Source: a virus. Taken from it: a stretch of DNA of 64,000 nucleotides. The notes beneath the pieces are model-generated. The model had not been told where the DNA came from. It made no database searches and saw only the letters and a program-made list of their open reading frames with translations. Every line of letters begins with the position of its first letter. Position 1 is the first letter of the stretch. Location of the stretch: positions 1 to 64,000 of the IMG/VR virus record IMGVR_UViG_3300046028_007828. One strand, written 5' to 3'. The translations under genes were made by a program, and so were the position numbers. Shown piece after piece: positions 22,596 through 26,280 of this stretch.

Positions 22596-24152
22596 TCAAC
22601 ACTTTTTCCACACCCACTTCGAATGCCCACAATCCCAAATCCGGTCGAACCCGTTCATTTTCATATTTTCCCATTCCGACAAGGCGGGGTCAAACGAAAG
22701 GAGTTTGTTGGCAAGTTTGTGTTTCTGCCACCCCTGTCTCCCGGACAGGGTAGAATATCCATCCACTGTGTAATAATATCCGGGGGGAGTCGTAGAAACG
22801 AAATTGAATCCCAACTTTAAATACACTTCACCCGAGAAGTATCGCCGGTCTCCGTATGTAACAATCGAATTAGGGTTGTGTTTTTTTACAAAATGAGAAA
22901 ACAGGCGAGAGCTTCCACCTATGACGGTGTGACCCAACTTAGAACAAAATCTGCTCATTTCCCACTCAACTGCCGTATCGAATCTGGATTTTACAAATGT
23001 CATGACCGACATCAACTCTTTATTGAAATACATTCCAAGTTTTATTGTGGCATGGTCGTTTCCTTGGATGTGATTTCTTGCCAGAAATTCCTTTTTTTCT
23101 TGAGATGATATATCTCGTATTTCACATTTTCGTGCGTGAATTTTTATATTACCCTTTATCAATATATTTCTGAGCACGGACTTGACCACTTCCTGTGAAT
23201 GATTCCATTCGTTTTCAAATATATGTATTAAGCGTATTCCTTTGAATGCTGCCCCGTTGGTCTTGTTGAGATGGTAATTTCTATTTTTTCCACCGGATAT
23301 TTCAGTATGCCAGTAAAGTCCATTACATTCTATACCAATCTTTTGATTTGGTAAATATATATCTATTTCTCTGGGAAATAATGTGGTTCTATCGTTGGGT
23401 ATCACGGGGTCATCCGGGACCAGTGTCTTGATAAATTCAAATATACTCGACTGAAAGTCCGACATAGTTTTGTCGCACTTAGAACATTTTATAGTTGCTC
23501 CATTATTAAGACTGTGTGCTTCTTCTCTATTGCATCTATTACATTTAAATGAATATGTCATTGTGGAGGAAACAGTCTTTACTCCAAAATAATCTTCTAT
23601 GTTAAATAACGGAACAAAATGTTTGAACCGCTCGGACGACACAAACTTTTTGAACATCGTTATTTTATGTGCATCTTTAAATTCACTCGATTTTGACGCA
23701 TGTGCAACTCCATATTTTATAGCACATGTCTTTTTGTATTTTTCTTCGTACTCTTTGGATTTTCTGTAATTATCAACCCCATATTTTTCTATCATGGTGG
23801 ATTTCATTTGTGTCGGGTTATTGTAATTTTCGTCACCATAACGAGCGGCAAGGGTTTTTTTAACTTTTTCTACGTGGTCTGGCATCCCACCGGCCCATTC
23901 CACGCCGTGTGTTGCCATCATCGCGGCTTTGTAATTCTCCTTGACCGCGTCGGTTTTCATAGCATGTCCACCATATCTAGCGTCGAAAGTTTTAGCAACT
24001 CCGAGTTTATTTTTCTCTTTTACCTCCGGAGAGTTACATGCGCAGACGCGAGAACAATACATTTTCTCTTTCCGTTTTTCGCACGTAAATTCCGATTTGC
24101 AGGTCGGGCAAATCTTGTGCAATGTATTATTTGGGTTCTTTGGTCTGGCCAT
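22596..24152 (-). CDS. Homing-endonuclease-like protein (Cys motifs, KYG repeats, PD-(D/E)xK domain, conserved C-terminal domain)
   Basis: CPTC..YCS..C; repeated (K/R)YG; EIDIYLP..KIGIECNGLYWH; IRLIHIFENEW; C-terminal FL..NH.QG, WE.SRF, IWDCG..KW. ATG at 24152. Confidence 0.7.
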   Translation of the reverse strand: MARPKNPNNTLHKICPTCKSEFTCEKRKEKMYCSRVCACNSPEVKEKNKLGVAKTFDARYGGHAMKTDAVKENYKAAMMATHGVEWAGGMPDHVEKVKKTLAARYGDENYNNPTQMKSTMIEKYGVDNYRKSKEYEEKYKKTCAIKYGVAHASKSSEFKDAHKITMFKKFVSSERFKHFVPLFNIEDYFGVKTVSSTMTYSFKCNRCNREEAHSLNNGATIKCSKCDKTMSDFQSSIFEFIKTLVPDDPVIPNDRTTLFPREIDIYLPNQKIGIECNGLYWHTEISGGKNRNYHLNKTNGAAFKGIRLIHIFENEWNHSQEVVKSVLRNILIKGNIKIHARKCEIRDISSQEKKEFLARNHIQGNDHATIKLGMYFNKELMSVMTFVKSRFDTAVEWEMSRFCSKLGHTVIGGSSRLFSHFVKKHNPNSIVTYGDRRYFSGEVYLKLGFNFVSTTPPGYYYTVDGYSTLSGRQGWQKHKLANKLLSFDPALSEWENMKMNGFDRIWDCGHSKWVWKKC

Positions 24153-24286
24153 AAGGTTCGTAAGCAATAAAACAGTATATGTTTTTTTGATAATGTCAAC
24201 ATATTTTTTGTTTAATTATTATTTATAATACGATGCGATTACGCAGGCAGAAATGAATAACCAAACAATTAACCCTATATAACACC

Positions 24287-24781
24287 ATGGCAGAACTACT
24301 AGATGCAAATTCTATATTTTTTACAGCGTATGAACCAAAAGTTCAAAACCGCTTTATTATCGAGATAGACGGAATTCCCGCATATCTTATCAAAGCGGCG
24401 GCGCGTCCAACTATTGTAAACAACTCAATTACCCTAGACCACATCAACTTGAAGCGCAAGCTCAAGGGAAAAAGTGAATGGTCCGACGTTGAAGTGACAC
24501 TGTATGACGCTATTGTTCCGTCCGGCGCTCAAGCCTGTATGGAATGGGTGCGTCTTGCTCACGAATCCGTGACCGGTCGTAACGGCTATGCGGCATTCTA
24601 TAAAAAGGATGTCAATATCGTTGTATTGGGTCCGGTCGGCGATAAAATCGAAAATTGGCAATTGAAGGGCGCATTCCCATCAACAGTCAATTTCAATGGC
24701 ACGGGACTTGATTGGAGCGCACAAGAAGCTCTGACCATCAACATGACGCTCACTTACGACTACGCGATACTTCAATATTGA
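24287..24781 (+). CDS. Tail tube protein (T4 gp19-like)
   Basis: EPKVQNRF, KGKSEW, LYD.IVPSGAQA.MEWVR, FYKKD, GPVGD..E.W.LKGAFP, L.YDYAILQY. Confidence 0.9.
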   Translation: MAELLDANSIFFTAYEPKVQNRFIIEIDGIPAYLIKAAARPTIVNNSITLDHINLKRKLKGKSEWSDVEVTLYDAIVPSGAQACMEWVRLAHESVTGRNGYAAFYKKDVNIVVLGPVGDKIENWQLKGAFPSTVNFNGTGLDWSAQEALTINMTLTYDYAILQY

Positions 24782-24803: not shown

Positions 24804-24832
24804 AAGTCCCCTATGAAAATAGGGGATTTTTT
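24804..24832 (+). terminator. Terminator after the tail tube gene
   Basis: TCCCCTAT-GAAA-ATAGGGGA followed by a T-run. Confidence 0.8.
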
Positions 24833-24833
24833 A

Positions 24834-24865
24834 TTGACATATACAAAATTATCCGCATACTTATA
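24834..24865 (+). promoter_or_regulatory. Promoter(s) for the release factor leader ORF
   Basis: TTGACA(24834)-N16-CATACT, overlapping a TACTTATA copy of the putative late motif (24858), about 10 nt before ATG 24872. Confidence 0.6.
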
Positions 24866-24871
24866 TTCGCT

Positions 24872-25613
24872 ATGAAGACACAAACAACATATTACTCGAA
24901 TAACTCGGGCAACCCATCGGGAGGCTCTGCTAGCTCTTGGGGGTCACTTTGACGCGAGAGGTGTGTTGGTTGAAGTAATTTCTGGCGAGGGCGGGGATGA
25001 TTCAAAATTATTCACCGAGCAACTGTTCATAGCTTATCTGGCGTTCATGGAAAAAAATGGACTGGAAGCTGAGTTGGAAGAAACCGGACCCAGCAAATTC
25101 AGTTTTGTGTGTTCGGATATGAAAGCTGAATCTTTGTTTGATTCCGAGACTGGGACGCATTGTGTACAACGCATTCCAAAGAACGACCGAGGTGGTAGGA
25201 AACATACATCTTACGTTGCCGTGACCGTAACGAGGTTACTGCAACAGAACAATGAAATGAAGGAATCTGATTTGGAAGAATCATTCCAACGAGGACATGG
25301 AAACGGTGGACAACACCAGAACAAAACGTCAAGTGCAGTGCGACTGAAACACATCCCAACTGGGTTGGAAGTTTTCATTAACGGACGAAGTCAGCAAGCC
25401 AATCGAAGAACTGCCAGACTGTGTTTGGCGGGTAAAATAAAGCAGTTTTCGTCCAAGTCGGGTAATTCTACTAATTATAGCGGCGCTGGTCGCGGAGATA
25501 AGGTCCGCACATACAACTATGCTGATAACCGAATTACTGACCACAGAAATGGAGCTAAGTGTCACATGATAGACAGTGTTATGAAAGAAGGAAGATTTGA
25601 ACTTTTACGCTAA
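24872..25613 (+). CDS. Class I peptide chain release factor, RF1-like, lacking domain 1; predicted to be made by +1 frameshift at 24947-24953 (about 246 aa)
   Basis: Leader MKTQTTYYSNNSGNPSGGSASSWGSL* (24872-24952). The +1 frame continues DARGVLVEVISGEGGDDSKLF...GTHCVQRIPKNDRGGRKHTS...GGQHQNKTSSAVRLKHIPTG...RSQ..N...VRTYNY..NRITDHR. Confidence 0.9.
24939..24953 (+). promoter_or_regulatory. prfB-type programmed +1 frameshift signal
   Basis: GGGGG TCA CTT TGA C: internal SD-like run, 3-nt spacer, then CTT-TGA-C in the leader frame; same layout as E. coli prfB AGGGGG TAT CTT TGA C. Confidence 0.85.
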
Positions 25614-25766
25614 TTCTTTCTTATATTCATTTTGGACTTGACGGAAGTATATAACACTGTGTACAATACTTGAGTTATAACGACAGCAACTAAATAAATT
25701 CAGTTAACTAGCATTAAAAATAAAATAAGTTATATTTATATATACTAAAAATAATAACAACTTAAA

Positions 25767-26015
25767 ATGAATAAATTTGAATTAAAATCTTTAATAAAAG
25801 AGGTTATAAAAGAAGTGAGGAATAAGTCAGAAACAAAACAAAAATTGAATAGAGTTGTTAGTTCATATATTACTTCTCCCGGAGAAAAAAATCCTTGCTT
25901 ATATATTAACATTCAGATTGAAGCAAAAGATATGGATTGTGCAGAAAAATGTAGAAAAGATATATTATCAGATTTAGAAAAAAATCACGACATAAAAATC
26001 CAAAAGGAAACTTAA
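25767..26015 (+). CDS. Hypothetical protein with K.ELK.LI.E N-terminus (possible head-internal protein)
   Basis: MNKFELKSLIKEVIKE; TATTTATA motif at 25733. Confidence 0.55.
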   Translation: MNKFELKSLIKEVIKEVRNKSETKQKLNRVVSSYITSPGEKNPCLYINIQIEAKDMDCAEKCRKDILSDLEKNHDIKIQKET

Positions 26016-26016
26016 T

Positions 26017-26280
26017 ATGAAACACGATGAATTAAAGAAATTTATACGGGAAACTATTAAAGACGCAATTGATGAATTTGCACCCCTCGGTGTTGCAGAA
26101 GAAGATATGTTACAGGAAAAATCTCCTCCGGGGTTTCCAGAGAAACTGCATGATAAATTACTGAGTCAATACGATGGAGATGAGGATAAAGCGTATGCCA
26201 CAATGTGGAAAATTTTTTATGCTAAGAAACGGGGTCATAAAAAGATGAATGAAATGTGGATGGCTTGGGAAAATAAATAA
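26017..26280 (+). CDS. Hypothetical protein with the same N-terminal motif
   Basis: MKHDELKKFIRETIKD; EKSPPGF...KAYATMWK. Confidence 0.55.
   Translation: MKHDELKKFIRETIKDAIDEFAPLGVAEEDMLQEKSPPGFPEKLHDKLLSQYDGDEDKAYATMWKIFYAKKRGHKKMNEMWMAWENK

Follow-up and report, generated by a model that had tools for sequence, protein, structure and literature searches.

Leader, slip-stop site, and body at 24,834–25,613

The window, i.e., the whole 64-kb stretch of DNA analyzed here, belongs to a 76.5-kb record from a T4-like myovirus. The record is a fragment with an estimated completeness of 32% and carries genes for sheath, tube, baseplate hub, UvsX, helicase, RNR, rIIA, and RNA ligase. Among cultured phages, Microcystis phage Mel-JY01 comes nearest, with only 43% recombinase identity; it is not among the release factor matches described below. 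All sampled 31-mers of the stretch are present in 22 lake-water runs from 2020 to 2025, some of which may be the source of the record. Reads from four lake-water runs were assembled and gave no contig over the site, and the RNA run reached the end of the tail-tube gene only.

Next to the factor gene lie a tail-tube gene and small ORFs of unknown function. The tail-tube ORF (24,287–24,781; PHROG tail tube) is followed by a terminator-like hairpin with a T-run (24,804–24,829, plus strand), located by a consensus scan, which closes the tail-tube gene unit. A sigma-70-type promoter-like site then occupies 24,834–24,861 of the plus strand, with TTGACA at 24,834, a 16-nt spacer, and CATACT at 24,856–24,861 (10 of 12 consensus matches). 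It ends 10 nt 5′ of the start codon ATG 24,872, so that an mRNA with its start predicted from this site would have almost no 5′ untranslated leader. The same layout, i.e., TTGAC.., (C/A)ATACT, 10 nt, and ATG, is found in two relatives, L052 and L050, and the region 24,834–25,613 is probably a self-contained gene unit expressed early by the host polymerase.

The leader ORF (24,872–24,952, plus strand, frame 0) has 26 sense codons from its ATG (MKTQ...SWGSL) and ends in TGA. Near its 3′ end lies an internal Shine-Dalgarno (SD)-like G-run, GGGGG (24,939–24,943, plus strand), which is conserved in the clade of close relatives and is separated by a 3-nt spacer, TCA (24,944–24,946), from the slip-stop site CTT TGA C (24,947–24,953, same strand). 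In this site CTT (24,947–24,949) is the Leu codon that would occupy the P site, TGA (24,950–24,952) would stand in the A site, and C 24,953 is a weak +4 base. The body lies in the +1 frame of the plus strand (24,951–25,613), from GAC 24,951 onward; it opens with DARGVLVEVISGEGGDD, comprises 220 codons plus a TAA stop at 25,611–25,613, and encodes release factor domains 2, 3, and 4, and the fused leader and body product is 246 amino acids long. The body frame is closed 5′ by a TGA that overlaps the leader ATG, and its first ATG, GTG, or TTG in the ORF scan is GTG 24,963. This GTG and the adjoining TTG (24,963–24,968, plus strand) are the possible internal starts chosen by ORF callers, with GAGAGG ending 1 nt 5′ of the GTG.

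A sequence-only reading of this locus had placed a promoter directly 5′ of a 26-codon ORF that ends in GGGGG TCA CTT TGA C and had pointed to a +1 shift into the factor frame; all of these sequence statements were exact. It had also likened the arrangement to the prfB autoregulatory site, and the G-run, the 3-nt gap, CUU UGA C, and the position at codon 26 are indeed all present. The locus has a short frame-0 ORF with its stop, a +1 body, a CUU slip codon, an SD-like run, and UGA-C, the sequence elements of a prfB-type cassette.

The pattern RGGGG-N3-CTTTGA occurs once in the 64-kb window, against 0.07 occurrences expected. As had been remarked earlier, the other genes lack an obvious SD: across the 76.5-kb record, an SD 4-mer at positions −18 to −4 precedes 4 of 77 ORFs, compared with 14.6% at random positions. 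SD is thus almost unused in this record, and the gate G-run stands out. Within the leader, a 22-nt block (24,907–24,928, plus strand) that includes a second SD-like element, GGGAGG (24,919–24,924), is identical in the 77%-identical relative L005. When conserved RNA structure was sought around the site, the RNAalifold consensus was weak (−5 kcal/mol) and lacked convincing covariation.

The genetic code of the record is the standard one: with table 11 its coding density is 91%, its 77 ORFs stop at TAA (58), TGA (17), or TAG (2), and there is no suppressor among its 14 tRNAs, all of which are located beyond the window. Stop-codon recoding was rejected on these grounds and also because a stop reassignment cannot mend a frame change. 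Transcriptional slippage was rejected as well, since it needs a longer run than the three T present at the site.

The release factor encoded by the body

Pfam places PCRF (profile positions 98–194 of 194 only) and RF-1 in the body. Among the NCBIfam profiles, RF1 scores 161.8 bits, RF2 119.6, PrfH 62.5, and ArfB 35.1, all of them under the curated cutoffs. For RF1 (TIGR00019/NF001859), the cutoff is 400 bits and the match spans profile positions 102–329 only, a start that indicates the absence of domain 1; in the alignment with PDB sequences, the body starts at the equivalent of E. coli RF1 residue 107. RF1 chains are the top PDB sequence matches (119 bits), with RF2 at 82 bits. An AlphaFold model built with 33 homologues (pLDDT 86, pTM 0.84) superimposes on free RF1/RF2 crystal structures with TM scores of 0.80–0.82 (0.80 for RF1 1rq0). 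Maximum-likelihood analysis of 69 sequences, with five RF2 references as the root, unites the short phage factors in a single group (SH-aLRT 97), places this group as sister to cellular RF1 (95), and sets RF2 apart (100). The body had been taken for RF1-like and not RF2-like from its letters, and this assignment held in the HMM scores, the PDB matches, the best bacterial matches, and the tree.

For the cellular comparison, one genome each from 185,579 prokaryote species was searched and the best 80 relatives were examined; all of these are full-length canonical RF1 proteins with PxT, with no more than 38% identity to the phage protein. Shared with bacterial RF1 (prfA) are domains 2–4, GGQ, the codon-reading elements VQR-P..-..HTS, and the RTYN...DHR signature, whereas the low identity to these best 80, the missing domain 1, a PKN tripeptide replacing PxT, and a profile score of 162 against 400 bits set the phage factor apart. 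PKN (25,176–25,184, plus strand) stands at the stop-codon-reading position of RF1 and is aligned with PVT of Thermotoga (T. maritima) RF1, and the catalytic GGQ (25,305–25,313, plus strand) is the invariant G119 G120 Q121. The phage protein likewise retains Gln and His-Thr reading elements of RF1 type, and the RF2 tripeptide SPF is absent from it. Judged by these sequence comparisons, the phage protein is of RF1 type but is not an RF1 orthologue. Across the phage family PxN, PxT, and PxS alternate, and many relatives have PPT. The PKN loop is a natural variant of the “protein anticodon”: from the RF1-type sequence, UGA reading is predicted to be absent, yet Thr is replaced by Asn.

Domain 1 is the part of RF1 that contacts RF3 and the L11 stalk. 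RF1 without domain 1 has been reported to be active (PMC1586002). The body is evidently under purifying selection and a live gene, given the strong third-position bias between the window and its closest relative L052 (127 differences at third, 39 at first, and 31 at second codon positions).

PrfH, or RFH, is a domain-1-less factor that is paired with the RtcB ligase and rescues damaged ribosomes. The phage protein resembles it in lacking domain 1, in keeping GGQ, and in its similar size. However, it scores 62.5 bits against a cutoff of 166.65 (TIGR03072), matches PDB 9mor with an E value of 9e-11, has decoding elements like those of RF1 and unlike those of RFH, and has no adjoining RtcB; the only RNA ligase of the record is Rnl-type and lies 2.6 kb from the factor on the opposite strand. 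Another likeness is to the recoded phages Lak, Agate, and Jade, whose phage-borne class I release factors are thought to reshape termination (10.1101/2021.08.26.457843). Those phages reassign TAG or TGA with suppressor tRNAs, in contrast to the standard code of the present record, and the preprint (Borges et al.) describes RF1 and RF2 in recoded phages with no frameshift mentioned.

Conservation in close relatives and across the phage family

Four close relatives were compared as DNA: L005 (identical to L001; 77% identity to the window), L052 (78%), L006 (64%), and L050 (67%, partial), L052 being the sole additional close relative that a metagenome scan with the protein returned. All four have an ATG-started leader of 22–27 codons, a G-run (GGGGG, GGGG, or GGAG) three to four bases 5′ of the slip codon, and a slip-stop in the frame one base 5′ of that of the body. 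The alternative GTG/TTG starts are missing in three of the four, i.e., L005 (GTT/CTT there), L006, and L050, and none of these three has any start codon from the site up to the conserved GEGG strand. The leader differences between the window and L052 are distributed 7/6/6 over the codon positions with no bias, so that only the openness of the frame and the site are conserved and not the peptide sequence. In L052, the closest relative, GTT-TGA replaces CTT-TGA, and GTT-TGA is also found in the unrelated L011. The GTT variant seems to be tolerated, though re-pairing should be poorer, and the poorer re-pairing in L052 is an observation that counts against a frameshift.

Beyond the clade, the survey covered about 45 phage loci, taken from IMG/VR and from GenBank. 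Among them, 30 distinct contexts have a CTT-stop in the correct frame just 5′ of domain 2. Of these contexts, 22 are gated by TGA, 7 by TAG, and 1 by TAA; C follows the stop (+4 base) in 20 of 30, and G occupies positions −7 and −6 in 21–22 of 30 (about 70%). The codon preceding CTT is mostly TGT, giving the consensus GG(G/A)(G/C)-TGT-CTT-TGA-C. Most leaders in the family open at an ATG preceded by an SD of its own; leaders of about 8–29 codons are found in most of the distant relatives, and GTG/TTG starts are absent from most of these relatives too. Homologues thus retain both the leader and an SD-N3-CTT-stop in the corresponding frame (leader, G-run, and slip-stop in 4 of 4 in the clade, with GTT for CTT in L052; CTT-stop in 30 contexts of the family), the check that had been proposed when the site was first noticed.

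There are also variations on this arrangement. Seven of the 30 loci (L004, L016, L019, L021, L024, L027, and L037) have tandem gates, in which a frame-0 leader without an ATG is reached via a second upstream CTT-stop with a strong SD. L002, L003, and L053 begin at an ATG, with AGT-CTT-TGA-C about 39 codons inside the body; at the same alignment position L043, L044, L046, and L049 have an in-frame TGA and L022 an in-frame TAG. In L007 and L032 an in-frame TGA comes soon after the start, and L017 and L018 appear ungated. The gate codon can differ between near-identical proteins, i.e., TAG in L030, TAA in L031, and TGA in their sister L025.

A protein search over the length range 121–385 amino acids returned 455 proteins at E ≤ 1e-10, and the called lengths of the best 120 of these 455 homologues run from 125 to 292 amino acids, the wide range that would result from gene callers guessing at a nonexistent start. 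In eight of the closest protein matches (P0002–P0032), the N-terminal extension as called has x-F-(D/E) where the two frames would join, consistent with TTTGA.

Several correlations were sought across the loci. No usable one was found between gate codon and loop type (PxT/PxN/PxS), between gate codon and the stop usage or GC of the flanking genes, or between the gate SD and the SD use of the flanking genes. The search for a conserved partner gene gave no recurring neighbors other than the tail-tube gene, inside the clade, and HNH homing endonucleases at scattered loci, and no RtcB, PrmC, or RF3-like gene adjoins the factor loci. On the sequences compared, the family pattern cannot be explained by sequencing error or pseudogene formation.

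Proposed mechanism and competing explanations

The closest known system is bacterial prfB, with which the phage cassette shares the leader length (about 25 codons), the SD-like G-run 3 nt from CUU, UGA-C, a +1 body, and a class I release factor as the gated protein; the prfB consensus is AGGGGG-N3-CTTT (PMC12421855). Prince et al. (2025; PMC12421855), who surveyed over 12,000 genomes of bacteria, found the frameshift confined to RF2 and absent from prfA, and the reviewer's report with Baranov et al. (2006; PMC1586002) likewise places it in RF2, not RF1. GeneTack and PRFect list CTT-stop frameshifts for prfB only. Burroughs and Aravind (2019; PMC6514570) describe no frameshift and no phage factors bar the passing word “viruses.” A full-text literature search found no description of a CTT-stop frameshift on a phage RF1-type factor. 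The prfB motif is retained in F. johnsoniae, an SD-poor bacterium (PMC12421855).

The phage cassette differs from prfB in several respects. Its gated protein is RF1-type, so that a UGA gate is not obviously self-sensing; its leader stands in for domain 1 instead of forming the beginning of that domain. TAG gates occur in 7 of 30 contexts of the phage family and tandem gates are common, in contrast to TAG in 0 of 8,164 prfB motifs (PMC12421855). The family also has a second site position, internal in L002, L003, and L053.

We consider it very probable from these comparisons that a programmed +1 frameshift takes place at this site. That it works as a prfB-type race, in which UGA termination against slippage sets the output of the domain-1-less RF1-type factor, we favor with moderate confidence. 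In this scheme, ribosomes would start at ATG 24,872 near the mRNA 5′ end and read 26 codons, until CUU occupies the P site with UGA next to it in the A site and the G-run 3 nt 5′ pairs with the anti-Shine-Dalgarno end of 16S rRNA. Two outcomes would then compete: either termination by host RF2, which frees a 26-residue peptide, or slippage of the peptidyl-tRNA-Leu from CUU onto UUU, after which reading would proceed in +1 (GAC...) and yield the factor. Factor output would rise when RF2-dependent termination is slow in the infected cell and, being set by the race, should vary inversely with UGA termination. We infer the slippage itself, its rate, and its modulation by RF2, as well as termination at UAA/UAG by the product. 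UAA ends 58 of the 77 phage ORFs, and the product could top up termination if host factors are short. An RF1-type product would not close a prfB self-loop, unless PKN reads UGA.

The sequence-only reading had gone further, in that the factor would be made only when host RF2 activity is low or inhibited. Of that reading, the prfB-type geometry, the RF1-type body, and the conservation are borne out, and host-RF2 sensing is plausible; the word “only” is not supported, as a prfB-type site slips about 53% in a B. subtilis reporter at normal RF2 level (PMC12421855) and the gate codon varies. This baseline, the varying codon, and the lack of gate correlations weaken the reading of an RF2-sensing, UAA/UAG-supplying device. 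Since the gate is TGA, TAG, or TAA and differs between near-identical proteins, specific RF2 sensing is not the family rule, and the flipping of the gate stop argues against it as the selected function.

If the frameshift is real, it may serve ordinary self-regulation, in that the PKN, domain-1-less factor also reads UGA (or all three stops) and closes its own gate as RF2 does in prfB. One rule would then cover the TGA, TAG, and TAA gates of the family, and the clade has Asn where 80 of 80 cellular RF1 have Thr, the amide of which might in principle tolerate either A or G as the second stop base. We nevertheless regard this as unlikely. Most TGA-gated relatives have a canonical PPT loop together with the RF1-type Gln and His-Thr elements, and loop and gate are uncoupled, non-Thr loops occurring at 9 of 21 TGA sites and 2 of 8 TAG/TAA sites. 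Moreover, the first-position Pro of the tripeptide is held to restrict stop position 2 to A, as Ito and colleagues are said to have found in 2000. A little less likely still is that the frameshift acts mainly as a fixed attenuator that keeps a potentially toxic, RF3-independent factor low, stop identity and host release factor level being minor. The drift of stop identity among close relatives (L025, L030, and L031), the stacking of two sites at 7 of 30 loci, which multiplies the attenuation, and the in-frame stops that other members have instead would all fit, as would the reduced fitness of B. subtilis on release factor overproduction (PMC12421855). A weak start or promoter, however, would be a cheaper attenuation, and, with +4 C kept in 20 of 30 contexts and an SD-like element retained at a constant distance, selection seems to have favored efficient slippage that competes with termination.

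The remaining two explanations dispense with the frameshift. The 26-codon ORF may be a separate uORF and the factor may be made from GTG 24,963 or TTG 24,966, perhaps by re-initiation after TGA 24,950. These starts are 13–16 nt past the stop with GAGAGG just 5′, and the product would be short of the homologous body by four residues only. We find this improbable: the start codons are missing in L005, L006, and L050 and in most distant relatives, GAGAGG is only 1 nt from the GTG in a record that hardly uses SD, and the exact slip-stop would be an unexplained coincidence in about 30 lineages. It is an observation against the frameshift, all the same, that GTG and TTG lie 4–5 codons past the site and that internal initiation there would give an almost complete factor. 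A broken gene, through mis-assembly, a one-base error, or pseudogene decay, might be suspected with a single metagenomic contig and an L052 that has the weaker GTT slip codon; we take it to be very improbable indeed, with the identical frame break at the motif in independent assemblies from many samples, the sampled 31-mers all present in 22 lake-water runs (some perhaps the source of the record), and a body under purifying selection.

Returning to the programmed frameshift, we tentatively propose a wider reading of the family as termination homeostats, with appreciably less confidence than the race itself. A slip-stop gate, single or tandem and with UGA, UAG, or UAA, would gauge how occupied or depleted the host release factors are and release an RF3-independent phage terminator accordingly; at the present locus, a UGA (RF2) input would be turned into an RF1-type (UAA/UAG) output. 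Such a crossed circuit is not known in cells; if it exists, phage translation, 75% of it UAA-terminated, could persist after host shut-off or a termination-targeting defence.

The frameshift of prfB is the standard example of a gene that gauges, on the ribosome, how active its own product is. Here the device is carried by viruses on a gene of RF1 type, all three stop codons occur in it, and some loci have it twice. The cassette would be portable and partly re-invented independently, with at least one subgroup having the site elsewhere in the gene, and gene callers systematically mis-annotate such genes. It gives a testable handle on why large phages carry termination factors and on what these factors sense in the infected cell.

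Turnover of the gate stop codon and tandem or internal sites in relatives

The stop codon of the gate, i.e., the putative prfB-like slip-stop at which a +1 frameshift would lead into the release-factor body, differs even between factors that are almost identical. L030 and L031, two of the more distant homologous loci, are separated by tree branches of 0.011 and 0, and the gate codon (site ~2490) is TAG in the former and TAA in the latter; in their sister L025 it is TGA. The gate stop codon is therefore quick to change, while the CTT-stop is retained.

Judging from the sequences, two successive +1 slips would be needed in seven relatives: L004 (1415-1497), L016, L019, L021, L024, L027, and L037. 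In all seven, the first CTT-stop closes a short leader that opens with ATG and carries a strong SD-like run, and it is separated by 34-70 nt from the second CTT-stop; the stop pairs seen include TAA+TGA, TAA+TAG, TGA+TGA, and TAG+TAG. A subgroup made up of L002 (3090-3110), L003, and L053 has a plain ATG start and carries AGT-CTT-TGA-C ~39 codons into the body, at an alignment position that falls directly after MEKNG in the window protein. At this same position, ~32 codons after position 2501, there is an in-frame TGA in L043, L044, L046, and L049 and an in-frame TAG in L022. These in-frame stops may reflect Trp reading in TGA-recoded phages, or they may be a read-through gate.

Neighboring genes

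A homing endonuclease gene (PHROG 3339/HNH, 523 aa; window 22596-24167, minus strand) separates the tail-tube gene from the RNA ligase gene. Six distant relatives also have HNH endonuclease genes no more than 2.5 kb from the one for the release factor, which is probably mobile-element traffic and not functional partnership. On the 3' side of the release-factor gene, there is another promoter of consensus type (TTGACG, 18 nt, TACAAT; within 25638-26280), and after it come two small ORFs (25767-26015 and 26017-26280), whose N-termini are alike and amphipathic (MNKFELKSLIKEV... and MKHDELKKFIRET..., respectively).

Leader block, tRNA genes, and initiation signals

A 22-nt block of the leader (window 24907-24928), which includes GGGAGG, is unchanged in L005, a relative with 77% identity, and almost unchanged in L052. 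It is thus conserved far better than the rest of the leader around it; RNA structure was sought and none was found. Beyond the window, the same record (G000:C1) carries an array of 14 tRNA genes (74231-76506), including tRNA-Leu(TAG) and tRNA-Phe(GAA). No suppressor tRNA is among the 14, one of which (75200-75269) was given an undefined anticodon, "(ta)", by ARAGORN. TAG terminates only 2 of the 77 ORFs in the whole record. Both in the window and across the record, starts are seldom preceded by SD-like 4-mers (4/77 ORFs versus 14.6% at random positions), and this depletion suggests a host in which translation rarely begins by the Shine-Dalgarno route.
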